From Planctomycetota bacterium (GTDB lineage: Bacteria; Planctomycetota; Phycisphaerae; UBA1845; CAIVHJ01): a stretch of 41,252 nucleotides of DNA. Below the pieces are notes generated by a model. It made no database searches. It was not told where the DNA came from and saw nothing but the letters and a program-made list of their open reading frames with translations. The position numbers were made by a program, and so were the translations under genes. The DNA lies in the NCBI GenBank assembly GCA_022573485.1, contig JACZTW010000001.1, forward strand, positions 1 through 41,252, read 5' to 3'. Positions 5,037-29,777 of the stretch are shown in pieces. The first letter of the stretch is position 1, and every line of letters begins with the position of its first letter.

Positions 5037-5134
5037 CGGCTGCGTCCCGTAAGATACCCTTACAAGTATGTTAGGATACATAGAGCCTATCGTCAATCGT
5101 CGGCGTGGGGACGACCGATTTGGGATGATCGGGG

Positions 5135-5536
5135 TTATTCTCTCCTGAGATTTGAGGCCGTTGTACCGGCCGGCCTCGAGAATATGGCGGAACAGCCAGG
5201 GGCCTCCACCACGGCGACACCGGCGAGTTCCGGACCGTGCCAGTCGAGGCGGTCCAGCGCTTCGAAGACTCGCTGCGCCACGGCCTCCGCCGAGGGTGGC
5301 ATTCCGGCAAGGAAAGAGTGTTCATTCAAATTCGCGCCGGTGAGCGGATCGAGGATGCGGTCCATCTCCTGCCGGACGAAACAAAAATCGACCAAGAACC
5401 CGTCCTTGCCGAGTTTGAGCCCGCGCAAGATCACAGTCACCCGCCAGTCGTGCTCGTGCAGCGGTTCCATGGCGCCGTCCGGCATTCGGACGGCGTGCGC
5501 GGCTCGGACAGTTCTCTCGACTCGAACTTCAAACAT
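5135..5536 (-). CDS. 6-pyruvoyl-tetrahydropterin synthase / QueD-family protein
   Basis: MFEVRVERTVRAAHAV...PLHEHDWRVTVILRG...GFLVDFCFVRQEMDRILDPLTGANLNE... follows the PTPS/QueD pattern, with the usual HGH replaced by HEH. The start is trimmed to the Met at 5536; the upstream part of the track ORF looks non-coding. Confidence 0.75.
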   Translation of the reverse strand: MFEVRVERTVRAAHAVRMPDGAMEPLHEHDWRVTVILRGLKLGKDGFLVDFCFVRQEMDRILDPLTGANLNEHSFLAGMPPSAEAVAQRVFEALDRLDWHGPELAGVAVVEAPGCSAIFSRPAGTTASNLRRE

Positions 5537-5633
5537 CTGCCGCTGCCCATTATCATCCTTTATGCCAGCGTGCCAAGTCCCGTGGTATCGTGGGTTCCGA
5601 TGCGAGGGCACAATCGCTACACTACTCAATACT

Positions 5634-6404: not shown

Positions 6405-6565
6405 AACAGGGCGCGCCTCGGCCCCGCCGAAGTTCGCGCCGATTGCTCAACAGGCGCGTGGTGTGGCACCCCTTGGCAATAGCGGCTGTTGGCCTTAGAC
6501 TACTATTGCACCCGCTTCGAATCCGAGTCTGTGGAATTCATTGTGCCTGATCCCGAGGAGCGAAC

Positions 6566-10238: not shown

Positions 10239-10327
10239 TTGGCCCTCAGTATAGCGTCAACCTTGATATCGCGGGTTCAGTCTCGAACTAGCGGCCTGCT
10301 GCGAGGCGCTCGAGAATGTAGTATTCT

Positions 10328-10427
10328 AGGCTTTGTCTGAAAACGCATGTAGTGGTCGGCGTCCCTGCCGACCGTCGGCCGGCACAGAGGCCGGCCACTA
10401 CGACAGCCGAGTTTTCAGACAAGGCCT
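10328..10427. repeat. About 100-bp imperfect palindromic element (REP/MITE-like)
   Basis: Left arm AGGCTTTGTCTGAAAAC...GTAGTGGTCGGC. Right arm GCCGGCCACTAC...GTTTTCAGACAAGGCCT. The GC-rich core also contains CCGACCGTCGGCCGG. It lies in a 414-bp intergenic gap. Confidence 0.6.
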
Positions 10428-10652
10428 TGAACAATTTCTATCCTGTTGCAGCGTTTCGGAGTCGATTCTTCCTTGAGGATCTTCCAACGCGGACGCCATA
10501 CGATGATCGCAAGCGCTCTAAACCTCGGGGCGGTCGCGAACGGCGCAGGCTGGAGATGCAGGCATTGCGGCTTCAACTTCCAGAGGAATTCGAGTAGGCT
10601 ATCGATGTGACCTGGCGCGTGTCGAGTAGTTCTTGCATGGAAGGCGCGGGCG

Positions 10653-11216
10653 ATGGCTGAAACCAACACACCGACGACAGTTCTGCGTGAAGAGCACCGG
10701 CTCATTTTGAAGGTTCTGGACGCGTTAGAGCGCGTTCTGAACGAGGGCTCGGCCGTGAGCGCGCAGAATGTTGAGACGCTCGCTAAGTTCGTCTCTTTCT
10801 TCCGGCTTTTTGCGGATGCTTGTCATCATGGCAAGGAGGAGGACTTGCTTTTCCCCGAACTGGAAGCGCGTGGGATTCCCCGCGAGGGCGGGCCGATCGG
10901 CGTGATGCTGGCGGAACATGAGCAGGGCCGAGGGTTCGTGCGGCAGATGCACGAAGCGCTGCCGGGGGCCCGCGCCGGTGAGGCAGCGGCCGTGGATGCG
11001 CTGGTCTCGGCGGGCAGGGACTACATTGATCTTCTTCGTCAGCACATCGACAAGGAAAACAACGTGCTGTTCATGATGGCGGATCGCGTCGTGGACGAGT
11101 CGTCCTGCGCCAGACTCTGCGGGGAGTACGCCCACGTCTGCAGCGGGAAGTTTTCCGGTCAGACAAAAGACGAATTACAGGAATTGGCAGCGGAACTCAT
11201 CCGCGCGGCAGTTTAA
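10653..11216 (+). CDS. Hemerythrin-like (HHE cation-binding) domain protein
   Basis: ...LREEHRLILKVLDALE..., ...ADACHHGKEEDLLFPELE..., ...MLAEHEQGR... and ...QHIDKENNVLFMMAD... form the His/Glu pattern of hemerythrin-like domains. Confidence 0.8.
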   Translation: MAETNTPTTVLREEHRLILKVLDALERVLNEGSAVSAQNVETLAKFVSFFRLFADACHHGKEEDLLFPELEARGIPREGGPIGVMLAEHEQGRGFVRQMHEALPGARAGEAAAVDALVSAGRDYIDLLRQHIDKENNVLFMMADRVVDESSCARLCGEYAHVCSGKFSGQTKDELQELAAELIRAAV

Positions 11217-11321
11217 TCCGGAACGGACGGTGATCGGGCATTGGTTGAGACGTGAGTTCGTACGCCGGCGGTGGTACTGCCGCATCTGGCAATTCAGGTT
11301 GGCGCTTGTAGTTGATGTGCA

Positions 11322-12419
11322 ATGAGTATGGTTCTCGCAGTTGTCATGCCGAAGCCCGATGTGCCGGTCGAGCTTCGCGAGATACCTGAGCCGGTCCTGG
11401 AGCCGAATTCGGCCCTTCTGGGCGTGGAACTCAGCGAAGTCTGCGGGACCGATGTGCACCTCCAGCAGGGCCGACTGGCCGACGTGCCATATCCCATCAT
11501 CCCGGGCCATGTCTCGATCGGGCGCCTCGAGAAGATTCGAGGTGAGCTGCTCGACGTACACGGTCAGCCGTTCGCCGAGGGCGATCGAGTCACGTTTCTG
11601 GATGTCCACAAGACTTGCAACGCATGTTGGCATTGCCTCGTTGCAAAGGCGAGCACGCGCTGCCCACACCGCAAGGTCTACGGAATCACGTACGGATTGG
11701 ACGACGGCCTGACCGGCGGCTGGGCCCAGAAAGTGTATCTCAAACCGGGGACGCGCTGCATCCGCTTCGATGCGGGCGATCCGGCCGCGTTCATGGCGGG
11801 TGGCTGCGCGCTGCCGACGGCGCTGCACGCGGTACAGCGAGCGGAAGTGTCGATCGGCGACACCGTCCTGGTACTGGGCAGCGGTCCGGTTGGCCTGTCG
11901 TGCATTATCTGCGCGGCCATGCAGGGCGCGCTTCGCGTCTTGTGCATCGGCGCACCGCAAAACCGACTCGAAGCCGCCGAGACCGTCGGCGCGGCGGCGA
12001 CCCTCGACTTTGAAAAGCATGATGAAGAGTCGCGTCGTCAGTGGGTGTTGGATCATACGCAGGGTCGCGGGGCAGACATCACCATCGAAGCCTCGGGCGC
12101 TCCGGCGGCGGTGGTGCAGGCCATGCGGTTCACACGCGACGCCGGGCGCGTTGTGATCGTCGGGCAATACACGGATCACGGTGAAGTGTCGTTCAATCCG
12201 CATCTCGATTTGAACAAGAAACATCTCGACGTTCGCGGCTGCTGGGGGTCGGATTTTTCGCATTTCTATCTGGGCGTCCAGATCATGAGCGACGCGGTGC
12301 GATCCGATCCCTGGAAGCGCTTGCGGCTCCAAAGCTTCGGCCTGTCCGAAGCTAATGAGGCGCTGGATCGAGTCGCTTCCGGAGGCGTGATCAAAGCTCT
12401 GATCGATCCCAGCATGTGA
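11322..12419 (+). CDS. Zinc-dependent medium-chain alcohol dehydrogenase/reductase
   Basis: ...SEVCGTDVHLQQGRL...PIIPGHVSIG... is the catalytic Zn site. ...CNACWHCLVAKASTRC... is the structural Zn loop. ...VLVLGSGPVGL... is the Rossmann motif. Confidence 0.88.
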   Translation: MSMVLAVVMPKPDVPVELREIPEPVLEPNSALLGVELSEVCGTDVHLQQGRLADVPYPIIPGHVSIGRLEKIRGELLDVHGQPFAEGDRVTFLDVHKTCNACWHCLVAKASTRCPHRKVYGITYGLDDGLTGGWAQKVYLKPGTRCIRFDAGDPAAFMAGGCALPTALHAVQRAEVSIGDTVLVLGSGPVGLSCIICAAMQGALRVLCIGAPQNRLEAAETVGAAATLDFEKHDEESRRQWVLDHTQGRGADITIEASGAPAAVVQAMRFTRDAGRVVIVGQYTDHGEVSFNPHLDLNKKHLDVRGCWGSDFSHFYLGVQIMSDAVRSDPWKRLRLQSFGLSEANEALDRVASGGVIKALIDPSM

Positions 12420-12468
12420 AGGTGTCTTACCGCGCGATACTCGTGATTTCGATACACGTACCGCAATA

Positions 12469-12535
12469 CGTGGCGTCTGCTAAACGACGAAGTCACTTCG
12501 ACGCACCCTATATGTAGCTTGCGGTTTGGCAGCGG
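12469..12535 (-). repeat. Copy C (inverted orientation) of a ~67-nt intergenic repeat with CTGCTAAACG / CGTTTGGCAG-type terminal inverted arms
   Basis: The reverse complement aligns without gaps to 39973-40039 at about 70% identity by hand count. This includes the 20-of-21-nt block GTGACTTCGTCGTTT(A/G)GCAGAC. Confidence 0.55.
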
Positions 12536-12655
12536 ATGCGAAGGAGTGATGATTTTCAATCGGATCAGATTTGCAATGCAGGTGGATTTTACAAGTCCGG
12601 CGTGTAGCGCGACGGCGATCCTCAGTTGACGATCCGTGCCGATTTCCCGCAGCAG

Positions 12656-12664
12656 TGCTATAAT
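12656..12664 (+). promoter_or_regulatory. Candidate extended -10 promoter element TGcTATAAT
   Basis: TGCTATAAT at 12656-12664, followed by AAGGAG (12675-12680) and the ATG at 12689. No good -35 element at 17-bp spacing. Confidence 0.3.
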
Positions 12665-12688
12665 GTCCAAATCAAAGGAGTTCGGAGT

Positions 12689-13703
12689 ATGCCCACATTG
12701 TTCGGGCGACGTTACATGCGCCCGGAATTGAAGAGTTCGGGTGAGATTTACGTCGGCATCTTTGTGTTGATTCTTGCGGGTTCGCTGTGTGCCGCGCTGG
12801 TGGTTCATTCACAGGGTGACGCCCCCAAGCTGTTTGAGATCGCACCGGAGTACTCGCAGGGGCGGAAAGTGCAGGAGGCGGCGGCTGCCGCGCTGCCGCG
12901 GCTGGACTCGCCGGACTGGAGCGAAGCGCGGGATGTTCGCACGTTCACGAAGAATACGCTCTACGAGAAGATCAACGGTCGGGCAGATATCTACTTCGAG
13001 TACAATTTCAAGCTGCTGACATTCGCCAAGTACGTCAACATCCAATCGCCCGATGAGGACATTCAAGTTTATATCTATGACATGGCTGAGCCCGCGAACG
13101 CTCTGGGCATCTACAAAGCGGAGCTGTCTGAGAACCCAGTATTGGCCGAGGTGGGTCGCGAGGGTTACCGCTCCGGGCCGAGTGTGTTCTTTTGGAAAGG
13201 GCCTATGTATATCTCAGTGATGGCGTTCGAGCCCTCGCTGGCGGACATTTGCTTGACCCTGGCTCGGAAACTTGCCGAAACGATCGAAAACAGCGAACAG
13301 CTTCACTGGTCGGAAGTCCTTTTCCCCAAAGAAGATATGACTTCCGAAGGGCTTCAATACAAGGCCAATAACGTCTTCGGGCTCGATTTCTTGAATGCAG
13401 TGTATCTCGTAGAGTATTCTAGTAGTAGTGGCCGGGCCAAACTTTTTTGCTCATCAGGCGGCGAGCGAATCGACCGCCCAACAACTGCTTCAGAGCTACG
13501 TTGCGTCCTTCCGAGAGTGTGGTGAAGTGCTCAGTGAGGCGGACGGAATCGTCATCGGCGATGCCGGCGGCGTTATCGACGCCGTGTTCCGCGTGGGCCG
13601 ATACTTGGCGGGCATCAGTGAAGCAAAAGACGCCCAGGCGGCTGGCGAGCAAGCGAGGCGTTTCCGTGAACGCGTGCGACAGGTGATCGATCAATTGCCG
13701 TAG
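12689..13703 (+). pseudogene. Membrane-anchored protein of unknown function, split by a +1 frameshift in a T6 run (13443-13448)
   Basis: The frame starting at 12689 (MPTLFGRRYMRPEL..., one TM helix) reads ...YLVEYSSSSGRAKLF, then decays into 27 more codons before a stop at 13525. The next frame continues sensibly as AHQAASESTAQQLLQSYVASFRECGEVL... to 13703. Removing one T from CTTTTTTG joins them as ...KLFAHQAAS... Confidence 0.65.
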
Positions 13704-13714
13704 GACACGCAGGC

Positions 13715-14809
13715 ATGGGCAATCATTCAGAATCCACTCCTTCGAGGCAGCTTAGTCGGCGTGAGATGCTGATCCGCGGCGGGCAGACGCTCGGTGCGAG
13801 CGCGCTGGCGCTGGCCGGGGGCAAGTGGCTCTACGATACGTAGGGCGATGCGGGTCTGGCGTTTGGCGAGCCGGAGCACTTCAAGAACTACTTTGAAGAA
13901 ATCGATTTTCCCGCGAGCCTGCCGCGCATCAGCGTTGCCCGGGGCACGCCGGGGAATATCGAAAAAATGTTGCAGGCCGCCATCGGCGAACTGGGCGGCG
14001 AACAGGGCATCGGGCGGTTCATCAAGAAGGGCGATGTCGTTCTCATCAAACCGAATGTGGGCTTCGAGCGCGACCCGCGCCTGGGCGCCACCACTAATCC
14101 GGACGTGCTGCGCAGCTTGATCCGGCTGGTCCGACAGGCGGGCGCGAAGAAGATTCTGGTCGCTGACAATCCGATCGAGCAACCGGCGGCCTGTTTCTTG
14201 CGATCGAAGATCCAGGAAGCCGCCGAGCAGGAAGGCGCCAAAGTGATCCTGCCGGCGGCCGTTCATTTTCAATCGGTTCAGATCCGCGCCGGCCTGCCCG
14301 ATGCCGGTCGGCATGAGGCGCTGGGCACCTGGCCGATCTTTTGGAAACCGCTGGCCGAGGCGAACAAGGTCATCGGCATCGCCCCGGTCAAGGATCACAA
14401 TCTGTGCAACGCGTCCATGAGCATGAAGAACTGGTACGGCCTGCTGGGCGGGCGGCGGAATCAGTTTCATCAAGCCATCCACCACATCGTCAGCGATTTG
14501 GGCTTTATGATGTCGCCGACTCTGGTGATCAATGACGGAACGCTCGTCATGATGCGGAATGGACCGACCGGCGGACGTCTCGAGGACGTTAAGGAAGGCA
14601 ATGTCATCGTCGCGGGCGTGGATCCGATCGCTACGGATGCCTGGACCTGTGAGCATGTGCTCGGCCGCGATCCGGCGCATTTGACCTACCTGCAATATGC
14701 ACATGACAAGTTCGGCGGGCAACACTTCGAGCAAGCTAATCGCTTCGGGCAGCTCGACTGGTCGAGCTTGCAGCGCGAAGGCAAGATCGTCGAGACTTTG
14801 GTGGGTTGA
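13715..14809 (+). pseudogene. Tat-signal DUF362-domain protein interrupted by an in-frame TAG at 13841-13843
   Basis: The ATG at 13715 encodes MGNHSESTPSRQLSRREMLIRGGQTLGASALALAGGKWLYDT, then TAG. The same frame continues GDAGLAFGEPEHFKNYFEEIDFPASLPRISVARGTPGNIEKMLQAAIGELGG...KKGDVVLIKPNVGFE...TTNPDVL..., which is the DUF362 core. No ATG/GTG/TTG lies in frame between the TAG and the Met at 13967, yet conserved-looking sequence (RISVARG) lies in that gap. Confidence 0.7.
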
Positions 14810-14864
14810 TGGAACTCGAATCGAACGTGCAAGACGGCGCTATGATCCTATTTGCATCGGCGAT

Positions 14865-14927
14865 GCTGCTAAACGGCAAGCCACGGGCTGCGTTTTGGGG
14901 TTTGGCCTTGTCGTTTCTCGACTGCTC
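14865..14927 (+). repeat. Copy A (3' half degenerate) of the ~67-nt intergenic repeat
   Basis: GCTGCTAAACGGCAAGCCACGGGCTG matches 39975-40000 (GCTGCTAAACGGCAAGCCAACGGCTG) with 2 mismatches in 26. The remainder is more diverged. Confidence 0.5.
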
Positions 14928-14967
14928 AAACGAATGTCGTTCATCAGAGAGACAGTAGTCGATAGAC

Positions 14968-17184
14968 TTGATCAAACACGTCAATGATCGTAATCGGGCC
15001 GAGCGCCTCAGTAAGCTGTTTTGGTTGATTGCGACCGTGCCGATCGGTTTTGGTCTCATGCAGTTTACGGAGTTCGGCCTGCTGATCTTTCCCAGCGTGC
15101 GCGATTTCCTGTCGGAAAATGTGAGCGTTCTGCCGGCGGGCTTCTGGCCGATCCTGATGTTTACGTTCGGGGCGGGGTTTGGTCTGCTGGGCTTCTTCAA
15201 GTTCACGCCGCTGCGGATTACGACTGTTCGCATCATCGTACAGACTGTCGTTTTCGCGCTGTTCATGCTCTTCGTGTTCGCGACGAGCTTCACGCAGCTT
15301 AGTGATCGGCCGCGCATGCAATTCTGGCTGAGCAAGTTTCTGGAAATCGATCCATTGGTGTCGATCGCCACGGCAATCACCACGCACACAGTCTACAAAG
15401 GCTTGATTTGGTCGCTGATCTTGCTCGTGCCGACGCTGTTTCTGGGACGGTTCTTCTGCAACTGGATCTGCCCTTACGGCATTATTCACCAGTTCGTCGG
15501 CTGGCTCTTCGGCGCCAGGGACGAAAAGCAGCGCATCGAAGCGAACCGCTATCGGTGGTATTACTCGATCAAGTATTACATCCTCATCGGGATGATCGCG
15601 GCGGCGCTGTTCGGCAATCTCGCCATCGGGCTGCTGGACCCGATCTGCCTGCTGCACCGCTCGTTCACGGCGGCCATTCTGCCGACGCTCAACATGCCGT
15701 TGCAGGGCATCTTCGGCGACTACAACATGCACGTGGGCGGCTGGATCATTGGATTCATTATGCTGGCCTTCATCGGCCTGAATCTCGTCATTCCGCGTTT
15801 TTTCTGCCGCGTGTTGTGCCCGCTGGGGGCCATGTTGGGCGTTTTCAGCCGTTTCGCCTTCTGGCGGATCGAGCGCGATACCAAGAAATGTACTGACTGC
15901 GATATGTGCCTGCAAAGTTGCGAAGGCGCGTCTGACCCGCATACGCAATTGCGCATGAGTGAGTGTTTCGTGTGCTTCAATTGCATCGAGGACTGCCCAG
16001 AGGACGCGCTGAGTTTTGCCTTCCTGCCGAAGAAGCAACACGAGGTTCGTGAACCGGATCTTAAGCGGCGGCACACCATCTTCGCAGCCCTGATCGGGGC
16101 GTTGTTCTTCGGTTTTACGAAGGTAAGCGGCAAGTCCACCAAGAATTACTCGACGAAAGTGATTCGTCCCCCCGGGACGCTCGAAGAGCAAGAATTCCTG
16201 AAACGCTGCATCAAATGCGATCAGTGCATTCGTGTGTGCCCGACGAATGTGTTGCAGCCGGCGTTGTTCGAGAGTGGACTGGAAGGCCTGTGGACGCCGG
16301 TGATGAATTTCCGCATGGGCTTCTGCCAGCTCAACTGCACTGCCTGCGGGCAGGTCTGCCCGACGGGAGCAATACAGCGGATCACTGTCGAAGAGAAGGT
16401 CGGCCTCGGGTCGTTCAGCGACGATGGGCCGGTGAAGTTGGGCACCGCCCACTATGACTTCGGCCGATGCTTGCCCTGGAGCAAGAACATCCCGTGCGTG
16501 GTCTGCGAGGAAGTCTGCCCAACATCGCCCAAGGCCATTCACAGCGAGCGTCGAAAGCTGATGATCCGCGACGGCAAAATGCAAGTGGTCGGCGGCAGCG
16601 ACAGCACGATCACCCTTCGCGAATATCCCAAACCGGGTGAGGCCAGCGGCCGCGCTGCTGCGTTTGTGCCGAATCAGTTCAGCGGCGACCAGACCATGTC
16701 CTACCACGTGGAGATCGTTCGCCGCGAAGGTCGCAGCGGCTACCGCAGGATCACCGGCAATTCCACGGACTCGCTGACGCTTGACGGGCCGTTCGGCTTC
16801 ACGCCCGCTGAGGGTGATATCGCGGTGATTTACAATGAGTTCAAGGTGCCCAAGATCGATACGGAATACTGCATCGGTTGCGGCATTTGTGAGCATGAGT
16901 GCCCGGTCAACGGTGATCGTCGGGCGGTTTATGTGACCGCCGAGGGCGAAACGCGATCGCAGCACTATCTCGAGCGCAACCGCAACCGATCCGTGCGCCT
17001 GCAAAAGAGCGCCGATGCGTCGTCCGCGATGCCCGGCGACTTGAGCCTGTCCGGGATGATTCTTGCTTTGGACAAGCGAGATGGATGTGGTAGCGGTTGC
17101 GGCTGCAACCATTCGGAGACAAAGGACTTGCCGGCAGCGCCGCCGGAGGCTCCAACAATCGACTTGCGAATGTTCCTCGGTTAA
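14968..17184 (+). CDS. Membrane-bound polyferredoxin: NapH/MauN-like transmembrane module fused to several 4Fe-4S ferredoxin domains
   Basis: Multiple TM helices with two NapH-type motifs, FFCNWICPYG and FFCRVLCPLG. It also has CTDCDMCLQSC...CFVCFNCIEDCP, CIKCDQCIRVCP...CTACGQVCP, CVVCEEVCP and CIGCGICEHECP. The C-terminal tail is GCGSGCGC (17086-17106). TTG at 14968 is the first in-frame start; the first in-frame Met is at 15058. Confidence 0.85.
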   Translation: MIKHVNDRNRAERLSKLFWLIATVPIGFGLMQFTEFGLLIFPSVRDFLSENVSVLPAGFWPILMFTFGAGFGLLGFFKFTPLRITTVRIIVQTVVFALFMLFVFATSFTQLSDRPRMQFWLSKFLEIDPLVSIATAITTHTVYKGLIWSLILLVPTLFLGRFFCNWICPYGIIHQFVGWLFGARDEKQRIEANRYRWYYSIKYYILIGMIAAALFGNLAIGLLDPICLLHRSFTAAILPTLNMPLQGIFGDYNMHVGGWIIGFIMLAFIGLNLVIPRFFCRVLCPLGAMLGVFSRFAFWRIERDTKKCTDCDMCLQSCEGASDPHTQLRMSECFVCFNCIEDCPEDALSFAFLPKKQHEVREPDLKRRHTIFAALIGALFFGFTKVSGKSTKNYSTKVIRPPGTLEEQEFLKRCIKCDQCIRVCPTNVLQPALFESGLEGLWTPVMNFRMGFCQLNCTACGQVCPTGAIQRITVEEKVGLGSFSDDGPVKLGTAHYDFGRCLPWSKNIPCVVCEEVCPTSPKAIHSERRKLMIRDGKMQVVGGSDSTITLREYPKPGEASGRAAAFVPNQFSGDQTMSYHVEIVRREGRSGYRRITGNSTDSLTLDGPFGFTPAEGDIAVIYNEFKVPKIDTEYCIGCGICEHECPVNGDRRAVYVTAEGETRSQHYLERNRNRSVRLQKSADASSAMPGDLSLSGMILALDKRDGCGSGCGCNHSETKDLPAAPPEAPTIDLRMFLG

Positions 17185-17272
17185 ACTACAGTTTATGCGC
17201 AGGCAATGTCGAGCAAATCGAATCGGGCCGAAACAGAATCGGGTCAGCAGCGCAGCCTAGGAGGCTTTTCGT

Positions 17273-18502
17273 ATGCACGATCGCATGTGTGAAGTATCTC
17301 GCCGCGAATTCATGAAGACCGGATCGGCGTTGACCGCCGCCGCAGCGGCCGCGGCAAGCCTGCCCGCCGTCGCCGCGTTCGCCGAAGAAAAGCCCGCAAG
17401 AGGCGCATTGGCCATGCGCAAGTTGGGCAAGACGAACGTGGGCGTTACGATTTTGAACCTCGGCACTGCCGGCGACACGGACACGCGTCTGATGAATACA
17501 GCCTGGGCCGAAGGCGTGCGCTATTTCGACACAGCGGATTGCTATAAGGGGGGCAATAGCGAGAAGGCTGTCGGCGAATGGCTGGCCAAGACCGGCCGGC
17601 GCAAAGACATGTTCATCGTCACCAAGGATCACCCGAAGACACCCGACGAATGGGTCAAAATGATCGACGCCCGGCTCGAAGCCCTGCAAACCGACTATGT
17701 GGACTTGTTCTTCCTGCACGGTCTCGGTGGTGGGTTCAGAGGTGGCGGCGTCGAGGATCATCGGGGCATCCCGAAGGACAAGGACTGGGCCAAGGCTGCC
17801 GACACGCTCAAGAAATCGGGTAAGGTCAAGTTCGTCGGCTTCAGCACGCACACCGAGATCGATCTGCGCAGCTCGCTGCTCAACGATGCGGCCGTCGGCT
17901 GGGCGGATGCGATCATGGTGGCATCTGATCCGAGACTCGTGCGCAAGAACAGCGACTTCAACAAGGCCCTGGACGCGTGTTATAAGGCCGGGGTTGGCCT
18001 GATCTGTATGAAGGAAATGCGGGGGGCGGACCAGATTCCCGAGATTGTTCCCGAGTTCGAGAAGATGGGGCTGACCAAGTATGCCGCCGTGCTCCACGCC
18101 GTGTGGACGGACCAGCGCTTCGCCAGCATTTGCTCGAACATGCAGAACCTCAAGATCGTCAAGGAAAACTCAGAATCCGCCCGGACCTTCAAACCGTTGA
18201 CCGACGACCAATTGGGCATGCTGGATACGGTCATGGATCGATATGCCAGCAGTTTCTGCGTCGGCTGCGACGGGAGCTGCGCCGTAGCCGCTGGTACGGA
18301 CGCGGCCCTCGGCGACATCGTGCGCTACTTGTCTTACTGCGAAATGGATGGCGATCGGGCGACGGCTCGGCGGCTGTTCCGTGAGCTGCCGCCGGCGCAG
18401 CGCGACTGGTCCGGCGCTGATCTCAAGGCGGCCCAGGCCGCCTGTGTGTCGAACATCGATTTTGAGGACTATCTCGCGCGGGCCAAGACGAAGCTGGCCT
18501 AG
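17273..18502 (+). CDS. Aldo/keto reductase with an N-terminal twin-arginine (Tat) signal and a C-terminal Cys motif
   Basis: The signal is SRREFMKTGSALTAAAAAAASLPAVAAFA. The AKR core includes ...GVRYFDTADCYKGGNSEKAVGEWL... and ...DYVDLFFLHG... CVGCDGSC lies at 18257-18280. AGGAGG sits 8 nt upstream of the ATG. Confidence 0.85.
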   Translation: MHDRMCEVSRREFMKTGSALTAAAAAAASLPAVAAFAEEKPARGALAMRKLGKTNVGVTILNLGTAGDTDTRLMNTAWAEGVRYFDTADCYKGGNSEKAVGEWLAKTGRRKDMFIVTKDHPKTPDEWVKMIDARLEALQTDYVDLFFLHGLGGGFRGGGVEDHRGIPKDKDWAKAADTLKKSGKVKFVGFSTHTEIDLRSSLLNDAAVGWADAIMVASDPRLVRKNSDFNKALDACYKAGVGLICMKEMRGADQIPEIVPEFEKMGLTKYAAVLHAVWTDQRFASICSNMQNLKIVKENSESARTFKPLTDDQLGMLDTVMDRYASSFCVGCDGSCAVAAGTDAALGDIVRYLSYCEMDGDRATARRLFRELPPAQRDWSGADLKAAQAACVSNIDFEDYLARAKTKLA

Positions 18503-18639
18503 GCACCGATTCTTCAAAGGGCTGAACTGCGACCATCTTTGTAGAGTGCCGTACTTCGAAAGTGACTCGATCTGCTGCCACGGTCGTTGCAGATGGACGC
18601 TTTCAGGGTGCGGCACTTTCTTGCGCAGGGAGAAGTCAT

Positions 18640-18801
18640 TTACCGCAGAGATCGCAGAGATCGCAGAGAAATTGAATTGTTGCCTTGAGCGCGTCTGCAA
18701 GCCAGTCATGACAGATGCACTCCCTTGCCCGCTCGACTGGGCGAAAATCCTCGGCTTGCTCCCCTATCCTTCTCTGCGTTCTCTACGTTCTCTGCGGTGA
18801 A
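18640..18801. repeat. About 160-bp element bounded by inverted triplets of a 9-mer, (A[T/C]CGCAGAG)x3 ... (TTCTCT[G/A]CG)x3
   Basis: Left arm TTACCGCAGAGATCGCAGAGATCGCAGAGAA (18640-18670). Right arm TTCTCTGCGTTCTCTACGTTCTCTGCGGTGAA (18770-18801). The arms are imperfect reverse complements. Confidence 0.65.
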
Positions 18802-18812
18802 TCCCAGGTGCT

Positions 18813-19388
18813 TCAGCGCGGAGCGACCGTGATTGCCTTGGGTTGCGTGGGGCAGTGGAATTGGCACACGCCGCAGCCGACGCAGCCGGGATCCAGAACT
18901 TCAACTTGTCCGGCGGCATCCAGGTGTATCGCCGATTCTCCCATTGGGCACAGAGTGATGCATTCCGTGCAGTCTTCGCCCGTCGTGCGTACGCAAACAG
19001 AGTGATCGACGACAGCCAGTCCCATCCGGATGTCCGCCGGCGAATCGACGAGTTGCAGCGCGCCGCTGGGACAGGCTTTCATGCAGGCCAGTTCGTCGCA
19101 GACCACGCAGGCGCCGATGTCCGGATCGATGATCGGCGTGCGGTTGAGGTTGTCGTCGGTGCTGCCGAACAGCTTGATGGCATCGGCGGGGCAGTCCTCG
19201 ACGCAGTTGCCGCAGCGATAGCACACGTCCAGAAACTCTGCCTCCGGGATGGCCCCTGGCGGGCGCAGCAGTGTGCGTCGGACCGGTTCTTCGAGATTCA
19301 TACGCTCGGTCAGGAATTCTGCCACCGGCTTCATGATCGAGCGGAAGCTCTCGCGAAAGAATTGTCGGCGGTCGCCGGTGTCGCTCAT
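18813..19388 (-). CDS. NapF/NapG-like multi-[4Fe-4S] ferredoxin
   Basis: MSDTGDRRQFFRESF...LLRPPGAIPEAEFLDVCYRCGNCVEDCPADAI...CVVCDELACMKACPSGAL...CTECITLCP...CVGCGVCQFHCPTQ. The RRxFF plus RPPGA..E..F..C..CG.C pattern resembles NapF-type proteins. No hydrophobic h-region follows the RR, so it is probably not exported. The start is trimmed to 19388. Confidence 0.75.
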   Translation of the reverse strand: MSDTGDRRQFFRESFRSIMKPVAEFLTERMNLEEPVRRTLLRPPGAIPEAEFLDVCYRCGNCVEDCPADAIKLFGSTDDNLNRTPIIDPDIGACVVCDELACMKACPSGALQLVDSPADIRMGLAVVDHSVCVRTTGEDCTECITLCPMGESAIHLDAAGQVEVLDPGCVGCGVCQFHCPTQPKAITVAPR

Positions 19389-19398
19389 CGGTGTGGCC

Positions 19399-19602
19399 TC
19401 AGGGGTGCTGTTTCTTGAGCTTTTCGATCTCAGCCTCATGCCGTTTGAGGCGGCGGGTGAGCTGCTCAAAGATCTTCCGCAGTTCGGGCTTGATCGCGGC
19501 ACAGTCCGGACAGTGGAACCGCGTCGCGCCGCTCTTGGCTACCGGGTAGTCAAACCTTCGCCCGCAACAACGGCACACACGTTTCTTGATTTCGTCGCTC
19601 AT
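19399..19602 (-). CDS. Small zinc-ribbon protein with a C-terminal charged helix
   Basis: MSDEIKKRVCRCCGRRFDYPVAKSGATRFHCPDCAAIKPELRKIFEQLTRRLKRHEAEIEKLKKQHP has CxxC...CxxC. It ends 10 nt before the ferredoxin start. I prefer the ATG at 19602 over the GTG at 19608. Confidence 0.5.
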   Translation of the reverse strand: MSDEIKKRVCRCCGRRFDYPVAKSGATRFHCPDCAAIKPELRKIFEQLTRRLKRHEAEIEKLKKQHP

Positions 19603-19603
19603 C

Positions 19604-19651
19604 CGCACACTCCACGCGATTTCACAAGATCCTATTGTACCGGAGTGTGCG
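19604..19651 (-). promoter_or_regulatory. 10-bp perfect inverted repeat in the 5' leader whose 3' arm contains the GGAG Shine-Dalgarno of the Zn-ribbon gene
   Basis: The minus-strand RNA reads CGCACACUCC-n28-GGAGUGUGCG-g-AUG. The arms are at 19642-19651 and 19604-19613. Confidence 0.4.
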
Positions 19652-19767
19652 CAATCGTGCGACGCCCTTCAGAGCCGGGAGCGCCAGCGACCGGTCATTC
19701 AAAGAAAGCAAGTGTTCAGAGGGAGTAGCTTGGGCGATGCCTGAACTCTCGGTCAGAGGCGAGTCCG

Positions 19768-21201
19768 TTATGGAGCTGCAGGAGCATCGCCAAGGTAGAA
19801 GAAGACACCTTTGAGATCCTCAGTCGTGCTGATCGCCGTTCGCGGGCCGTTGCGCTCCCGGAAGGACGTGGCCCGGAACTGGTAGAACATCCCGATCTCC
19901 AGAGGCGGCCCGGCATAAGTGTGCGTGACGGTCTCGGCGCCGCTGATCGAACCGATTTCAGCGCTCCAAATCTCCTCGCCGAACGAATCGAAGACGCGGA
20001 TCTCGTAGCCGTCCTCGCTGGAATCATCTTCCCACTCGAGCACCGGCGTGGTCGTGTCTACTTCCTCCGGCCCGTCCGACCCCGGGCTGACCACCGCGAG
20101 CGCCCCGGTGACCTTGAACCCTTCGGAGATGGACAGCATGTTTCCTTGGTCGGGATTAGGCACTTCGATGCGGACGACTTGCGTGCCACTGATGGACTGG
20201 TCGGGATCGCGAACCAAACCGTCATTCTCAAAGGCTGCCAGCACCACATAGCTTCCGTCGGGAATGTCTTCGATGACGAATGCCCCGTCGACCTCGCCGA
20301 CGCGCAGGCCGGGCGGTACCGTTCCCCGGCCGGCGGCTTCAACGAATGTGCTTTCGACGGCCAGGATGACGCTGGTCAATGATCCGCCCGGCGCGTTGAC
20401 GATTTGAACACTGCCCGACACTGTATTCAGCGGCCGATTGGATTCCGTCAAATCAATCCCGGTCTGATCCTCGCCGGCCTGCACGGAAGTACTCACTGCA
20501 TCGAGTTGCACGCCGGCAGCGTATCCCTGGACCGAGTAGGTTCCGGCGGGCACGTTGAAGATGATGTAAGCGCCCTCGCCGTCACTGAATCCAGTGAGCG
20601 CCGTGTCCGCGTTTTCGGCGACCAACAGCAATCCGGCAAGGGTCTCGGCCTGGATGGTGCCGGAGATGGAGCCCAGATCGGACGTGTCACCCGGCAGGGC
20701 GATGAGCTTGATCGTGGTCAAGGCGTTTTCGATGATCCAACCGTCGTCCTCCGCTGCGGCGGTCATGGCATCGAGCGGCAGAGCGGGGCGGATGGCTGTC
20801 GGGAATTCGATGAAGCTCGCGGCCTGTGCCCGCAGCGTATACGAACCAGCCAGCGGCATTAAATCGGCGTCTCGATTTGCCGGTACGATCAATTCGTAGG
20901 CGCCGTCGCTATCCGTGGCGGCTGACGTGCCCACCGCAGCGCCGTTGGCATCGACCGCCTGGACCCGGGCGTCCGCGATGGGTTCATCGTCGGCGATGTT
21001 CAAGACGCGTCCGCGAATCACCAGCGGCGCCAGACACTGCGATTCGCCGCCCGACACTGATTCGCACACCCGCCCGTCCGCGCATTCGGGGGCCAGCGGG
21101 TCGCAGGTCGTGTCGCCGCCGCTGTCCGGGCTGCAACCCCAGCAGCCAATCACCAGCGATAACATGACAGCAGTGAGTCGTTTACTATGACATGCGCTCA
21201 T
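19768..21201 (-). CDS. Secreted/lipoprotein with two to three carboxypeptidase-regulatory-like (Ig-like beta-sandwich) repeats and an FN3-like C-terminus
   Basis: Signal/lipobox-like MSACHSKRLTAVMLSLVIGCWGC. Repeats of the pattern I.G.V......P...A.V.......G...TD.DG.Y.L.VP.G.Y. Confidence 0.65.
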   Translation of the reverse strand: MSACHSKRLTAVMLSLVIGCWGCSPDSGGDTTCDPLAPECADGRVCESVSGGESQCLAPLVIRGRVLNIADDEPIADARVQAVDANGAAVGTSAATDSDGAYELIVPANRDADLMPLAGSYTLRAQAASFIEFPTAIRPALPLDAMTAAAEDDGWIIENALTTIKLIALPGDTSDLGSISGTIQAETLAGLLLVAENADTALTGFSDGEGAYIIFNVPAGTYSVQGYAAGVQLDAVSTSVQAGEDQTGIDLTESNRPLNTVSGSVQIVNAPGGSLTSVILAVESTFVEAAGRGTVPPGLRVGEVDGAFVIEDIPDGSYVVLAAFENDGLVRDPDQSISGTQVVRIEVPNPDQGNMLSISEGFKVTGALAVVSPGSDGPEEVDTTTPVLEWEDDSSEDGYEIRVFDSFGEEIWSAEIGSISGAETVTHTYAGPPLEIGMFYQFRATSFRERNGPRTAISTTEDLKGVFFYLGDAPAAP

Positions 21202-21272
21202 TGAGGATCTCCTTCATACATCACTCCATCGGCCGATCGAGCTCGGCAACGGTAGAATGAGCGTCGCCCGTC

Positions 21273-21842
21273 CTAGAGTGTGTCGCAGCGCCGCCGGATC
21301 AAATCGAGCAGCCTTTGCTCCATGGCAGCGTCTCTGCCTTCGGGCGTCCAGGTCATGTCCGTGGCGGGGTCGAACTGTCGGCCGGCGGTGGTGGGCAGGT
21401 CGGCGCTGAAGACGCGGAGGGCGGCGGCGGCGTTGTTGATCTGCCGCTCGACGGCGTGCAGGCGTTCCTTGTTGACGGCCACGTCGATGACGTACTCGCC
21501 CTGGTCCTGCGGCTTCGAGATTTGGATGGTCACGGATCGGCGGACGGTACGCATGCTGGATTCTGCCAAGTCGTAGGGCGTATCGACGTCATGTCGCCAG
21601 AATTCGAGGAAATGCTGCGAAGTCTGCGGAAATGTGGTAATCAGCCCAGCCCGCAGATCCTTGCGATCGATCTCGAAGCGGTGCCGCCGCAGCACGGCCT
21701 GACAGGCCTCCCACAGCCCACGGAAGTCGTCATCACTCGTCGCCAGGACTGCGCCCTGCGTCGGGTCCTGCGGCGCCGCCGGCCGGTGGCAGCCGGCGAA
21801 GGAAACGATTCCGATCACACTTGAGACGAACAGCGGTTTCAT
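21273..21842 (-). CDS. Lipoprotein of unknown function
   Basis: MKPLFVSSVIGIVSFAGC carries a lipobox (FAGC). The start is trimmed to 21842; the track ORF extends to 21971. I recognise no family. Confidence 0.55.
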   Translation of the reverse strand: MKPLFVSSVIGIVSFAGCHRPAAPQDPTQGAVLATSDDDFRGLWEACQAVLRRHRFEIDRKDLRAGLITTFPQTSQHFLEFWRHDVDTPYDLAESSMRTVRRSVTIQISKPQDQGEYVIDVAVNKERLHAVERQINNAAAALRVFSADLPTTAGRQFDPATDMTWTPEGRDAAMEQRLLDLIRRRCDTL

Positions 21843-21952
21843 TGCTCGCCATATGATACGCGGGGGCACAAGCGGGTCAATGCCGGGTGTTGATCTTTCC
21901 GATACAAAGTGCAGAGAGCAACCTCGGCTAGTGGACGACGGCTTGGACTGAA

Positions 21953-24151
21953 ATGAACATTCAACAAGCACGGCAGCAGATTATCGCGCTCCGGCAGCAG
22001 GGGAAGAAATACGCCGTGCTCGATGTCGGCTGGCGGTATCTGGCGGCGGTGCCTGACGACACCGAGATCACGGAGTTGGTGCTTGGAGGGCTGCTGGATG
22101 TCGGTTTGGGCGGGCTGGTCCGCGAGTTGCTCCAACTCCGCGGGGATCTTGATCAACAGGCGGCCAAGAAATGGCAGGCCGCTGCCGATGCGGTGCCGGT
22201 GGGGCGCGTGCCCTGGACGGAGCTGGCCGACACCTATCGAGCGAATCTCGCTCTGCTGATCGCCAATCATCCACACATGGCGGAACATGAACAGGCGTTG
22301 GAGCAGTCGTTGCGCGGTCTACACTTGTACCGTACGACGGATGGGCACCATCTGCTGTCGCGTCGCCAGGCCGGGCATTACCGCGAGTGGCTGCCGGCGA
22401 TCACGGACCATACGCACGACGTGAAAATGGAGCTACCGGAGCTGCGCCACGGTACGCCGATCTTCATCGACGGCATTTCGCTCGGCCCGATCGTGGAGCG
22501 CGTGTTTGATGCCACGGCTTCGATCGGCCTCAATCAGAGTTTGCCGGTGTTTTTGGTTGATGAAGAATTGTCTCACCTGGCGGCATGGCTGCACGTGGCG
22601 GATCGCTCGAAGCAGCTTGCGGATGAACGGTTCTTCGTGTTCTGCGGAGCGCGGGCGCTCGATGACCTCGTGGAGTTTCTTGACGGACATGACGATCTGG
22701 CCAGCGCGCCCTGTTGCGCGATCACGCCGCCGGGTGTCGTCGCGCTGCGGGACAAGTTGATGTCTCTTCATGCGGGCGTCCTGTTGCGCCGACAGAACGC
22801 ATACTTGGAAATCGTGAAGCAACTGAAGGATCGCTACGCCCAGCGCGACCTGGACTACTGGCGGGCTCGGGTGCAGGACAAAGGTCCGGTTATTGCGGTG
22901 ACTTCGCGGGCGACAACGATGTTGCAGTACTCTGCCCGAGATATTGGGCATGCACTCGAAGATATGGGCTATGAGTTCCACTTGCTGATCGAAGCAGCGG
23001 ATCATCTTCAGCTTACGGGACTTCATGTTGTGCGGCACATCTTGGAAGTCGATCCAGTGTTATGCGTGCTGATCGACCATCTTCGCTGCGAGCAAGACAA
23101 ACTGCTGTTCAACATTCCGACGCTGACCTGGGTGCAGGATCCGCTTCCGAATTTGCTCAATGCCCAAGCCGGGGCATCGATCGGGCCCCTTGATTTTGTG
23201 TGCGGCTATTATCAGGATCGTCTGGTGGGTGAGTTCGGCTATCCCGAGTCGCAGTTCATCGTCGCTCCGTTTCCAGTCTCGACGCGTGCGTTCCACGCGG
23301 ATCCGGTTTCAACAGATCACGGGCCGGAGTACGACTGTGACATCGTTTACGTCGGCCACATGCCGGGCACGATGGAGTCGCACTTTGCGAAGTGGCACGG
23401 CGACAGCCCGGCCGAAATCGGGCCGTTTCTTCAGATCCTCTACGAACGCGTCAAAAATGTTCTGGACAGTGGAAAACACATTACGCTGCCGGCCGTGTTC
23501 TTACGCGGGATCGTGAACGAACTTGGCGTGCGCATGGACGAAAAGGAATTCGAGAATCTGGCCTACGCGTTCGCCTACCGCCTGTTCGACCTGGGCTATC
23601 GGCAGCAGACATTGTCGTGGGTCGGCGAATGGGCCCGGCGGACCGGGCGCCGGTTCCGGATCTACGGCAGAGGTTGGGATGATCATTCAGAGTTGGGCAG
23701 TTTCGCAGCCGGTCCGATCGCGCATGGCGAACCGTTGCGGCGTGTGTATTGCTCCACGCCCCTTGTCTTGCAGTGCATTCCGGGCGGTTTCATGCATCAG
23801 CGGACCTACGAGGCAATCGCCTGCGGCGCACTCGTTCTGGTGCGCTTCAGTCCCAAGGATTTCTATCAAGTCTCCGTCGAAGAGTGGACGCGGCGCACCG
23901 CAGCCGGTGAAGTGATGGACAGCGCTGCCAACGACTTCCCAGGCCTCGCAAAACTCGTGTTCCACGATGCCGCAGAATTTGAACAATCAGCGGAAAAGTA
24001 TTTACAAGATCGCCGCACGCGCGAACGCACATTGGCGCCGATTCGCGATGTGGTGCTCCAAAAATACACCTACGCCAGTGTGATGAAGCGAATCATGACC
24101 GAGATCAAGCAGCGCCTGGGCACGGCCGAACTGGCTGAGGCCGCTCGCTGA
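21953..24151 (+). CDS. Large two-part protein: unknown N-terminal ~350 aa plus a C-terminal CgeB-like (GT-B, Glyco_trans_1_2-type) glycosyltransferase domain
   Basis: The C-terminal region has ...DCDIVYVGHMPG..., ...RFRIYGRGW... and ...HQRTYEAIACGALVLV..., a pattern seen in CgeB-family/DUF3880-type proteins. The N-terminal part has no motif I can name with confidence. Confidence 0.5.
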   Translation: MNIQQARQQIIALRQQGKKYAVLDVGWRYLAAVPDDTEITELVLGGLLDVGLGGLVRELLQLRGDLDQQAAKKWQAAADAVPVGRVPWTELADTYRANLALLIANHPHMAEHEQALEQSLRGLHLYRTTDGHHLLSRRQAGHYREWLPAITDHTHDVKMELPELRHGTPIFIDGISLGPIVERVFDATASIGLNQSLPVFLVDEELSHLAAWLHVADRSKQLADERFFVFCGARALDDLVEFLDGHDDLASAPCCAITPPGVVALRDKLMSLHAGVLLRRQNAYLEIVKQLKDRYAQRDLDYWRARVQDKGPVIAVTSRATTMLQYSARDIGHALEDMGYEFHLLIEAADHLQLTGLHVVRHILEVDPVLCVLIDHLRCEQDKLLFNIPTLTWVQDPLPNLLNAQAGASIGPLDFVCGYYQDRLVGEFGYPESQFIVAPFPVSTRAFHADPVSTDHGPEYDCDIVYVGHMPGTMESHFAKWHGDSPAEIGPFLQILYERVKNVLDSGKHITLPAVFLRGIVNELGVRMDEKEFENLAYAFAYRLFDLGYRQQTLSWVGEWARRTGRRFRIYGRGWDDHSELGSFAAGPIAHGEPLRRVYCSTPLVLQCIPGGFMHQRTYEAIACGALVLVRFSPKDFYQVSVEEWTRRTAAGEVMDSAANDFPGLAKLVFHDAAEFEQSAEKYLQDRRTRERTLAPIRDVVLQKYTYASVMKRIMTEIKQRLGTAELAEAAR

Positions 24152-29764: not shown

Positions 29765-29777
29765 CGGAGATTCGTTG

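Follow-up and report, generated by a model that had tools for sequence, protein, structure and literature searches.

Gene content and conservation of the locus

The stretch of DNA analysed here (referred to below as the window) comprises 41,252 nt of contig JACZTW010000001.1 (assembly GCA_022573485.1) from a Planctomycetota bacterium, and the feature under study is a group of six open reading frames (ORFs) at positions 12689–19602. An earlier note, made from the sequence alone, had proposed that these ORFs form an uncharacterised extracytoplasmic redox module, composed of membrane and iron-sulfur (Fe-S) proteins and of proteins exported via twin-arginine translocation (Tat). Gene identities were assigned by profile searches against Pfam and NCBIfam, and structures were predicted as AlphaFold2 (AF2) models and compared by Foldseek with the Protein Data Bank (PDB). 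By these means the identities and the quoted motifs of all six ORFs were recovered at their positions, but two of them, coding for a DUF6599 and a DUF362 protein, proved to be disrupted in the sequence as it stands. The plus strand carries, in this order, the genes for the DUF6599 protein, the Tat-targeted DUF362 protein, a polyferredoxin (PFD) and a Tat-targeted aldo/keto reductase (AKR), and the opposite strand carries those for a Zn-ribbon protein and a multi-cluster ferredoxin. Based upon gene order in related genomes, DUF6599, Tat-DUF362, PFD and Tat-AKR constitute a real and conserved operon-like module, whose association is far beyond chance. The proposal of the earlier note thus holds for the four plus-strand genes, but the minus-strand ferredoxin is probably cytoplasmic and the PFD is of a type that has already been described. 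The note had named two outcomes that would speak against it, a lack of synteny in relatives and a predicted topology with all Fe-S domains and DUF362 in the cytoplasm and no functional Tat signals, and neither of them was obtained. As the note had also stated, no nitrate reductase, molybdoenzyme or cytochrome is found among the large ORFs of the window, and no assigned pathway for these genes turned up in the literature searched.

The conservation of the module was examined in a sample of 80 PFD loci, with one genome per species, from >10 phyla, including the Planctomycetota, Verrucomicrobiota, Acidobacteriota, Nitrospirota, Desulfobacterota, Myxococcota, SAR324, Gemmatimonadota and others; the sample further takes in Kuenenia, Aminicenantes and Magnetococcales. 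PFD homologues as such are very numerous, with >3495 detected at E ≤ 1e-10 in a word-indexed search and 1199 representatives at 50% identity and E ≤ 1e-30, and an exact look-up of the window protein gave no record. The denominators of the counts that follow include only those loci with enough flanking sequence (70, 64, and 72, respectively). A Tat-DUF362 gene was present directly upstream of the PFD gene, and on the same strand, in 65 of 70 loci, and the synteny of these genes extends across many phyla; the gap between DUF362 and the PFD match has a median of 93 nt, and overlap of the two is common. DUF6599 was found upstream of DUF362 in 44 of 64 loci, and a Tat-AKR was present in 31 of 72 (43%), where it was located downstream in 20 cases and upstream in 11. 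When every ORF of these loci was clustered all-versus-all, only the DUF6599, DUF362, PFD and AKR families exceeded five loci, and no additional recurrent partner family emerged. The minor clusters consisted of housekeeping proteins (phosphoglycerate mutase, AmiC-type amidase, ABC ATPases, histidine kinases, and electron transfer flavoprotein), and the idea of a conserved extra catalytic subunit was rejected on the basis of this clustering.

Reverse look-ups starting from the partner proteins gave results of a similar kind. Two DUF362 homologues led to loci with the order DUF6599–DUF362–PFD, with or without an AKR, and those starting from AKR homologues led to a locus with PFD and AKR without DUF362 (L088), a locus with a Fer4 protein and an AKR (L087), and one with two tandem AKRs alone (L090). 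In view of the synteny counts and these look-ups, Tat-DUF362 and PFD appear as the invariable core of the module, to which the AKR would be added as a second client in some loci. All four plus-strand genes have ratios of nonsynonymous to synonymous substitution (dN/dS) of 0.07–0.15 in comparison with locus L001, the 89% identical relative. The napA, napB, napC, nosZ and mauAB genes were found neither in the window nor in the related loci.

Some other neighbours of the related loci may be mentioned here. In four loci that lack DUF6599 (L071, L080, L081, and L083) DUF362 is preceded by a gene resembling that of phosphoglycerate mutase and by an AmiC-type N-acetylmuramoyl-L-alanine amidase, and in L088 the PFD–AKR pair adjoins, downstream of the AKR, an mraZ-mraW-PBP-mur (dcw) cluster. 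These amidase and dcw neighbours hint, if only anecdotally, at a link with the cell envelope. In four Phycisphaeraceae-type loci the gene immediately upstream codes for Wzy_C (O-antigen ligase-like); as it is limited to these four loci from one lineage, it was rejected as a member of the module.

The polyferredoxin

The PFD gene (14968–17184, plus strand) codes for a 738 aa protein that is a fusion of NapH- and NapG-like parts. Its TTG start is provisional: the ATG with which the PFD of L001 begins is ATA here (14962–14964), and the TTG two codons downstream remains (14962–14970 region). This ATA may represent a third, possibly weakening, change in the operon, in addition to the two described below. 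The two NapH-type motifs (RFFCNWICPYG and RFFCRVLCPLG) and the GCGSGCGC tail that the earlier note had reported are all present in the sequence. Its count of at least four CxxCxxCxxxCP clusters needs some qualification, as there are six Cys motifs of the 4Fe-4S type, of which three match this pattern exactly and three are spacing variants of it.

The topology of the PFD was predicted from hydropathy and charge distribution, using the Kyte-Doolittle scale, which is a crude one and differs from the dGpred method employed in PMC5449189, and conservation was assessed in an alignment of 22 sequences. The core of the protein is predicted to contain five transmembrane (TM) helices (residues 87–105, 142–160, 205–223, 257–275, and 370–388); two extra N-terminal helices (17–41 and 55–77), common only to the closest relatives, leave the topology unchanged. 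The NapH-like half (residues 83–356; 15214–16035) contains the first four of the core helices, FFCxxxCPxG motifs at C164/C168 and C280/C284, and 4Fe-4S motifs at C308–C318 and C333–C343, and the Cys motifs of this part, which precede the internal twin-arginine (RR) motif, are located in K/R-rich loops that are predicted to be cytoplasmic. The RR motif itself (R367 R368) is followed by the fifth core helix (16066–16131 for both). R368 is invariant in the alignment, and this helix is the least hydrophobic of the core, with a mean Kyte-Doolittle value of 1.58 in comparison to 2.2–2.4 for TM1, TM3, and TM4. Downstream of it there is a lysine-rich stretch, TKVSGKSTKNYSTK, with five K/R within 20 residues. 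Based upon these features, and by analogy with the PFD discussed below, the fifth helix is predicted to be Tat-dependent, and the presence of RR before a weakly hydrophobic helix places the NapG-like half (residues 389–738; 16132–17184) outside the cytoplasm, presumably in the periplasm. This half has 4Fe-4S motifs at C414–C424, C453–C464, C501/C510–C517, and C635–C645, and an insert of ~100 aa at ~525–630. The protein hence has two CX3CP and two 4Fe-4S motifs before RR and four 4Fe-4S motifs after it, and all of their Cys residues are invariant.

The C-terminal residues ~700–738 (17070–17184) form the Cys-rich GCGSGCGC tail, which is followed by a conserved terminal IDLRxFL. These elements occur only in a subset of the Phycisphaerae polyferredoxins, among which the Cys-rich part differs both in its length and in its residues; binding of metal or sulfur by it may be possible.

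In profile searches residues 83–356 matched NapH over positions 23–282 of the 286 in the profile, with 81.1 bits for NF007013 (cut-off 234) and 76.6 bits for TIGR02163 (cut-off 213), and residues 375–530 matched NapG (NF007012) with 84.8 bits (cut-off 269). The best subfamily profiles were those that combine NapH with MauN and MauM with NapG (TIGR02163 and TIGR00397). A protein of the same kind, which has the accession Q1NSB0 and comes from delta proteobacterium MLMS-1, has been described under the name PFD as a membrane protein inserted by both Sec and Tat (Tooke et al., 2017, eLife; PMC5449189). In this one member of the type, TM domain 5 (TMD5) was found to be Tat-dependent by means of reporter fusions, the weak hydrophobicity of this domain and the positive charges that follow it govern the handover from Sec to Tat, and its authors named it as a fusion of NapH and NapG (PMC5449189). 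The window protein shares with Q1NSB0 the five-TM core, the Cys-rich cytoplasmic loops, the four periplasmic 4Fe-4S motifs, and the RR motif placed directly before a weakly hydrophobic TMD5 and then positive charges, but it has in addition the two N-terminal helices, the ~100 aa insert between clusters 3 and 4, and the Cys-rich tail. Judged by its predicted architecture, it belongs to this PFD type. No function is given for PFD in that work, which mentions DUF362 nowhere (PMC5449189), and nothing relevant to NapH/NapG fusions in Planctomycetes was present in the literature searched.

The two halves of the PFD have counterparts in the NapGH, NosGH, NosR and MauMN systems, with which it shares the NapH-type arrangement of two CX3CP and two cytoplasmic 4Fe-4S motifs and the NapG-type four-cluster periplasmic ferredoxin. 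In NapGH of E. coli and Wolinella succinogenes the concept is also the same, viz. the quinone pool feeding periplasmic Tat enzymes. However, in the window these parts are fused in one polypeptide and the partners are DUF362 and AKR, and whereas NapG carries its Tat signal on a separate polypeptide, the PFD uses an internal RR-TM helix instead. A similar logic is seen in MsrPQ (YedYZ), where a membrane redox protein feeds a Tat-exported periplasmic enzyme with electrons of the respiratory chain; this is an analogy only, as MsrPQ relies on heme b and Mo-pterin rather than Fe-S clusters and is unrelated in sequence. A fused, dual Sec/Tat version of the MsrPQ type of system also exists (PMC5449189).

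The DUF362 protein

The DUF362 gene (13715–14809, plus strand) matches Pfam family PF04015 with 132.2 bits (cut-off 24) over profile positions 1–199 of 200, and its leader, SRREMLIRGG, is the Tat leader noted earlier, although an in-frame TAG that interrupts the gene had been overlooked. The RR motif of the leader is kept in 67 of the 73 DUF362 proteins linked to a PFD. The AF2 model of the protein has a predicted local distance difference test score (pLDDT) of 91, and its top eight Foldseek matches in the PDB are all members of the LarA family (lactate racemase, LarA-like nickel-pincer nucleotide (NPN) enzymes and the malate racemase Mar2), with E values of 5e-6 to 1e-4 and a probability of 1.00, the query TM-scores (TMq) being modest (0.38–0.46); no PDB structure outside this family gave a significant match. 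As modelled, the protein has a LarA-like fold of two domains. This fold is shared with LarA whereas no sequence match to LarA or Lar_N can be detected: searches of the PDB sequences with the single sequence and with a profile gave no relatives and no LarA chain, and the Lar_N/DUF2088 profile gave no match even at E ≤ 10. DUF362 and DUF2088 (Lar_N) do belong to the same Pfam clan, CL0471 (PMC11770544).

An alignment of 57 DUF362 sequences from many phyla showed 12 invariant residues (K112, N114, D151, K226, H228, K238, N239, R248, H252, Q253, G286, and G287) but no conserved Cys, and binding of an Fe-S cluster by DUF362 itself was rejected for this reason. In LarA1, H174 and H108 are the catalytic His residues, K184 is the Lys that tethers the NPN, and H200 is a Ni ligand (PMC11770544). 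The series H228-x9-K238-x13-H252 of DUF362 resembles H174-x9-K184-x15-H200 of LarA1 in its spacing, and the residues may correspond to one another. DUF362 differs from LarA by its predicted Tat export and by its pairing with a polyferredoxin, which together imply a net transfer of electrons and not an internal shuttling of hydride as in LarA. No larB, larC or larE gene was seen within the 41-kb window. In other DUF362 proteins there is a Fer4 dicluster domain nested within the sequence (PMC7955657), a link by fusion which supports the view that DUF362 works with Fe-S partners, and extracellular DUF362-CBM9-dockerin proteins have been found in lignocellulose-degrading consortia (PMC5742341). 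The literature searched gave no function for DUF362/PF04015.

The aldo/keto reductase

The AKR gene (17273–18502, plus strand) was correctly described in the earlier note as coding for an aldo/keto reductase with a Tat signal (SRREFMKTG...AFA); it matches PF00248 with 82.6 bits (cut-off 24) and the Tat profile TIGR01409 with 17.0 bits (cut-off 16.7). Among the PFD-linked AKRs, 30 of 34 have an N-terminal RR signal and 29 of 34 a C-terminal CxxCxxxC. The PF00248 match covers only profile positions 20–191 of 291. The AF2 model (pLDDT 88) shows a full TIM barrel and, in addition, a helical domain that bears the Cys residues. Its closest structures are L-galactose dehydrogenases, AKR11, and AKR14 (Foldseek E 1e-17; target TM-score (TMt) ~0.7). 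In common with these members of the superfamily, the protein has the (alpha/beta)8 barrel and the D-Y-K-H tetrad (D86, Y91, K118, and H149), which is invariant in 37 close homologues. It departs from them in its cofactor motifs, of which the terminal E298–N299 is kept but GxSN is replaced by GFSTH and the Q of QxxxxP is absent, in the addition of the Tat signal and of a C-terminal domain of ~100 aa, where CxxCxxxC is part of five Cys residues (C287, C329, C332, C336, and C391) that are likewise invariant, and in its genomic linkage to a polyferredoxin. Because of these five invariant Cys residues the C-terminal domain probably binds an Fe-S cluster. A periplasmic AKR would be cut off from free NAD(P)H, and the obvious other route for its electrons would be through an Fe-S cluster with a connection to the PFD. 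Nothing relevant to Tat-exported AKRs was found in the literature searched.

DUF6599 and the disrupted reading frames

The first gene of the set (12689–13703, plus strand) matches Pfam family PF20244 (DUF6599) with 142 bits in its frame-1 part (threshold 27). It had been reported as coding for a single-pass membrane protein, and a single TM segment (residues 20–38) is indeed present, which predicts an N-in, signal-anchored protein with a periplasmic domain. However, the 1015 nt of this interval do not constitute one ORF. There is a stop in frame 1 at 13525, whereas the part that codes for the conserved C-terminus resumes in frame +1 from ~13449 and extends up to a TAG at 13701–13703, so that the C-terminal quarter of the protein is out of frame. 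The frameshift coincides with a run of T at 13444–13449, which consists of six T in the window and of five in L001 and L085. Programmed +1 frameshifting at CTT TTT TGC was considered and rejected, as there is no stop or stimulatory context and the relatives have T5. The two halves of the gene have dN/dS values of 0.13–0.15 each (vs. L001). The conserved residues of DUF6599 (G97, G308, and L91) are only structural ones, and the protein is probably a membrane-anchored periplasmic accessory, scaffold or substrate-binding part rather than an enzyme. DUF6599 is not mentioned in the literature searched. In five of the related loci (L007, L008, L009, L010, and L039), and in L091 at 5094–6920, the DUF6599 protein upstream of DUF362 is 500–614 aa long, about double the usual size.

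The DUF362 gene is interrupted at codon 43 (13841–13843), just after the hydrophobic region of the Tat signal, and its next in-frame start is the ATG at 13967. The sequence at this lesion is ACG TAG in the window versus GCC AAG or GCC AGG in the three closest relatives. Intact DUF362 genes in the relatives code for 363–380 aa and have K, E or V at the position of codon 43, and none of the 120 DUF362 homologues listed (~257–409 aa, most of them 340–395 aa) shows such a break. The dN/dS of DUF362 is 0.085 (vs. L001). TAG also terminates both DUF6599 and AKR in the same operon; it is a genuine stop here, and recoding of TAG in DUF362 was rejected for this reason.

Genes on the minus strand and the intergenic hairpin

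The remaining two ORFs, for which a Zn-ribbon peptide and a NapF-like multi-cluster ferredoxin had been reported, are both present, but they are accessories with a limited distribution. The ferredoxin gene (18813–19388, minus strand) codes for a four-cluster NapG/NapF-like protein, whose real start is probably the ATG at 19388 (MSDTGDRRQFF...); its homologue in L014 starts equivalently. It matches NapG with 122 bits (cut-off 269), TIGR00397 with 111 bits (cut-off 179), and NapF (TIGR00402) with 45.1 bits (cut-off 102.2). E. coli NapF is a cytoplasmic protein with an RR motif that lacks a hydrophobic region. In the window protein, similarly, the residues after RRQFF are charged and amphipathic and a hydrophobic signal region is missing, and it is therefore probably cytoplasmic, like NapF. 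The Zn-ribbon protein (19399–19602, minus strand) is 67 aa long and consists of CRCCG...HCPDC and a basic coiled-coil; because its gene ends 10 nt upstream of the ferredoxin start, the two are probably co-transcribed. Among the related loci, homologues of the ferredoxin occur only in L001 and L014. Members of the Zn-ribbon family were found at 12 loci, of which the window is one. Ten loci of the Verrucomicrobiota type have the gene directly downstream of that for the PFD, with both on one strand, and the arrangement seen in the window recurs in L014, a Gemmatimonadota locus. By this distribution, the ferredoxin and the Zn-ribbon are lineage-specific accessories and not part of the core.

Between the convergent AKR and ferredoxin genes there is a long imperfect hairpin (18638–18802), formed by an inverted repeat with arms of 33 nt, each of which consists of three tandem CGCAGAGAT 9-mers, and a spacer of 99 nt. 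The arms are 88% complementary, and the folding energy is -74.1 kcal/mol (z = -6.2). Nowhere else in the window does the 9-mer motif occur, and it is partly conserved in L001. The hairpin is probably a bidirectional terminator or an element of the repetitive extragenic palindromic (REP) type. An Rfam scan of positions 10000–22000 gave no match.

Other genes of the window

A run of genes for the biosynthesis of sugar nucleotides and nonulosonic acids extends from 28056 to 36238 and includes a CMP-type cytidylyltransferase, GFO/IDH/MocA, a DegT aminotransferase, an epimerase/dehydratase, a methyltransferase, a GNAT protein, NeuB, a formyltransferase, and a polysaccharide deacetylase; it is followed by an asparagine synthase (36257–38134) and a hexapeptide transferase. 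Among glycosyltransferases (21953–25058) there is a radical SAM/SPASM-domain protein (25199–26146), and beside it an ORF of 632 aa (26143–28041) with no Pfam match. At 3487–5096 (minus strand) an ATP:guanido phosphotransferase (McsB-like) adjoins a UVR-motif protein (McsA-like), forming a protein-arginine kinase pair of the kind that is more familiar from Firmicutes. At the window edge (110–1296, minus strand), a NuoA-like gene (Oxidored_q4) lies beside a gene for a 224 aa two-cluster Fer4 protein; these are part of an operon of the NADH:quinone oxidoreductase type and are unrelated to the module.

Discussion

Our interpretation of these results, which we hold to be fairly probable, is that the four plus-strand genes form a conserved module for extracytoplasmic electron transfer, in which a quinone-linked hub serves two Tat-exported enzymes. 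The NapH-like membrane half of the PFD would provide the presumed site for quinone or quinol, and the internal twin-arginine helix would carry the NapG-like half, with its four 4Fe-4S clusters, to the periplasmic face, the insertion of the protein requiring both Sec and Tat. DUF362 and AKR would be exported in folded form by Tat and bind to the chain of clusters in the periplasm, where they could act as catalytic subunits either side by side or in place of one another. Because DUF362 itself lacks ligands for Fe-S clusters, its electrons would have to come from another protein, viz. the PFD, whereas the AKR would combine an intact catalytic tetrad with its own probable C-terminal Fe-S cluster. 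DUF6599 would serve as a membrane-anchored periplasmic scaffold or substrate-binding part, and the cytoplasmic ferredoxin and the Zn-ribbon protein may act as a donor or in assembly, the ferredoxin possibly by passing electrons to those PFD clusters that face the cytoplasm. Gene content, synteny, signals, motifs and predicted folds are the observations from which we infer the docking, the quinone coupling, the direction of flow and the chemistry. In regard to the direction, we lean slightly, owing to the precedent of NapGH and NosGH, towards an outward flow from quinol or ferredoxin to periplasmic reductases.

Several considerations weigh against this interpretation. The NapH and NapG scores of the PFD are far below the equivalog cut-offs (81 vs. 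234 and 85 vs. 269 bits), so that a quinol dehydrogenase activity is suggested by analogy, and complex formation, export, quinone coupling and activity are predictions from sequence. DUF362 has neither a conserved Cys nor a recognised cofactor, which makes it an awkward acceptor of single electrons, and the hydride chemistry of AKRs is mismatched with one-electron Fe-S carriers unless another cofactor is present. With quinol as the donor, carbonyl reduction is disfavoured on thermodynamic grounds, which weakens the preference for outward flow. Additionally, some close AKR homologues have no PFD nearby and more than half of the loci lack an AKR. Lastly, both DUF6599 and DUF362 are broken in this window.

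The last of these points raises the possibility, a serious one although we give it somewhat less than an even chance, that the module is here a recently decaying and non-functional remnant, with DUF6599 truncated by the frameshift, DUF362 cut down to its signal peptide, and the PFD without an ATG; this would be compatible with a function of the module elsewhere. The frameshift and the TAG are unique to the window among its three nearest relatives, the PFD start has changed from ATG to ATA, and the ~30 other genes of the 41-kb window look intact by Pfam coverage, so that the lesions are concentrated in the operon; moreover, the codon beside the TAG differs too (GCC AAG to ACG TAG), which is atypical for a single-base sequencing error. 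However, the dN/dS values of DUF362 and of the two DUF6599 halves imply that any inactivation must be very recent, the frameshift lies in a T6 homopolymer, a classic site of sequencing or assembly errors, and the TTG start of the PFD is usable. In view of the purifying dN/dS values of the operon the lesions are either very recent or sequencing errors, and the module in this genome has either been recently inactivated or been hit by such errors; a read-level check of the two genes is due before the locus in this window is treated as functional. Much further from consideration is the possibility that chance alone has brought the six genes together and that no common function connects them. It could draw on the intergenic gaps of 158 nt and 88 nt within the plus-strand set and on a scan for promoters and terminators in which the signals were no more numerous than expected from shuffled sequences, but the order and orientation of the genes are kept across >10 phyla, and for the four plus-strand genes chance is effectively refuted. 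We regard it as extremely improbable overall; it may hold for the minus-strand pair, whose ferredoxin is shared only with L001 and L014 and whose Zn-ribbon is found in 12 loci.

Two other explanations accept the module but differ as to its work. DUF362 and AKR could be periplasmic dehydrogenases from which electrons pass inwards, via the NapG-like clusters, to the quinone pool, in the manner of an Fe-S-wired counterpart of the periplasmic glucose and gluconate dehydrogenases, with aldoses, sugar acids or other 2-hydroxy acids as candidate substrates. The oxidation of alcohols or aldoses by quinone is downhill according to established redox potentials, the structures that the AKR matches best are those of aldose (L-galactose) dehydrogenases, and many of the hosts are polysaccharide degraders. 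The DUF362 fold is that of the LarA 2-hydroxy-acid enzymes (PMC11770544), and extracellular DUF362-CBM9-dockerin proteins are known (PMC5742341). We nevertheless consider this explanation unlikely, since the structural likeness concerns only the fold, the neighbouring genes show no pattern of sugar uptake or catabolism, and the DUF362–PFD pair is also present in nitrite oxidisers, anammox bacteria, sulfate reducers, sulfur-disproportionating and magnetotactic bacteria, where a sugar pathway would be unexpected; in addition, the characterised systems of the NapH type are all thought to be outward donors. In the other explanation, PFD, DUF362 and DUF6599 constitute not a catalytic module of respiration but a system for the maturation or maintenance of periplasmic redox proteins, possibly for their reactivation or for the biogenesis of their cofactors, similar to MauM/MauN, which serve methylamine dehydrogenase, or to NosR/NosX, which serve NosZ. 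That the subfamily profiles with the best match combine NapH with MauN and MauM with NapG, that no terminal reductase is encoded nearby, and that some neighbours are housekeeping or envelope genes (four loci with the AmiC-type amidase, four with Wzy_C, and L088 with the dcw cluster) would all be in keeping with such a role. It is set back by the absence of a conserved client of the core pair, the AKR being present in 43% of the loci only, and by the highly conserved polar pocket of DUF362 (K, H, K, H, D, N, and R), which is more enzyme-like, and it appears to us improbable.

Returning to the module as a quinone-linked hub for two exported enzymes, no description of a partnership of PFD with Tat-DUF362, with or without DUF6599 and Tat-AKR, was found in the literature searched, and to our knowledge the only role known for polyferredoxins of the NapH/NapG type is the supply of electrons to reductases such as those of nitrate and nitrous oxide. 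Previous work on the fused PFD form dealt only with its insertion into the membrane, and the conserved partners reported here provide concrete candidate clients for it. DUF362, which is a large family, gains a testable role as an Fe-S-dependent periplasmic enzyme, and the AKR may possibly work without a free nicotinamide cofactor. A more specific proposal, which we regard as doubtful and quite speculative, is that DUF362 is a Tat-exported enzyme of the LarA fold with an organic or metal cofactor, possibly a pincer-like one, which in contrast to the LarA racemases carries out net redox chemistry via a transmembrane polyferredoxin of seven centres, and that the AKR is a NAD(P)H-independent enzyme wired by Fe-S clusters. 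If this should prove to be true, DUF362 and AKR would represent a new and very widespread class of quinone-linked periplasmic oxidoreductases, whose possible substrates may be sugars, 2-hydroxy acids or carbonyls of the cell envelope.

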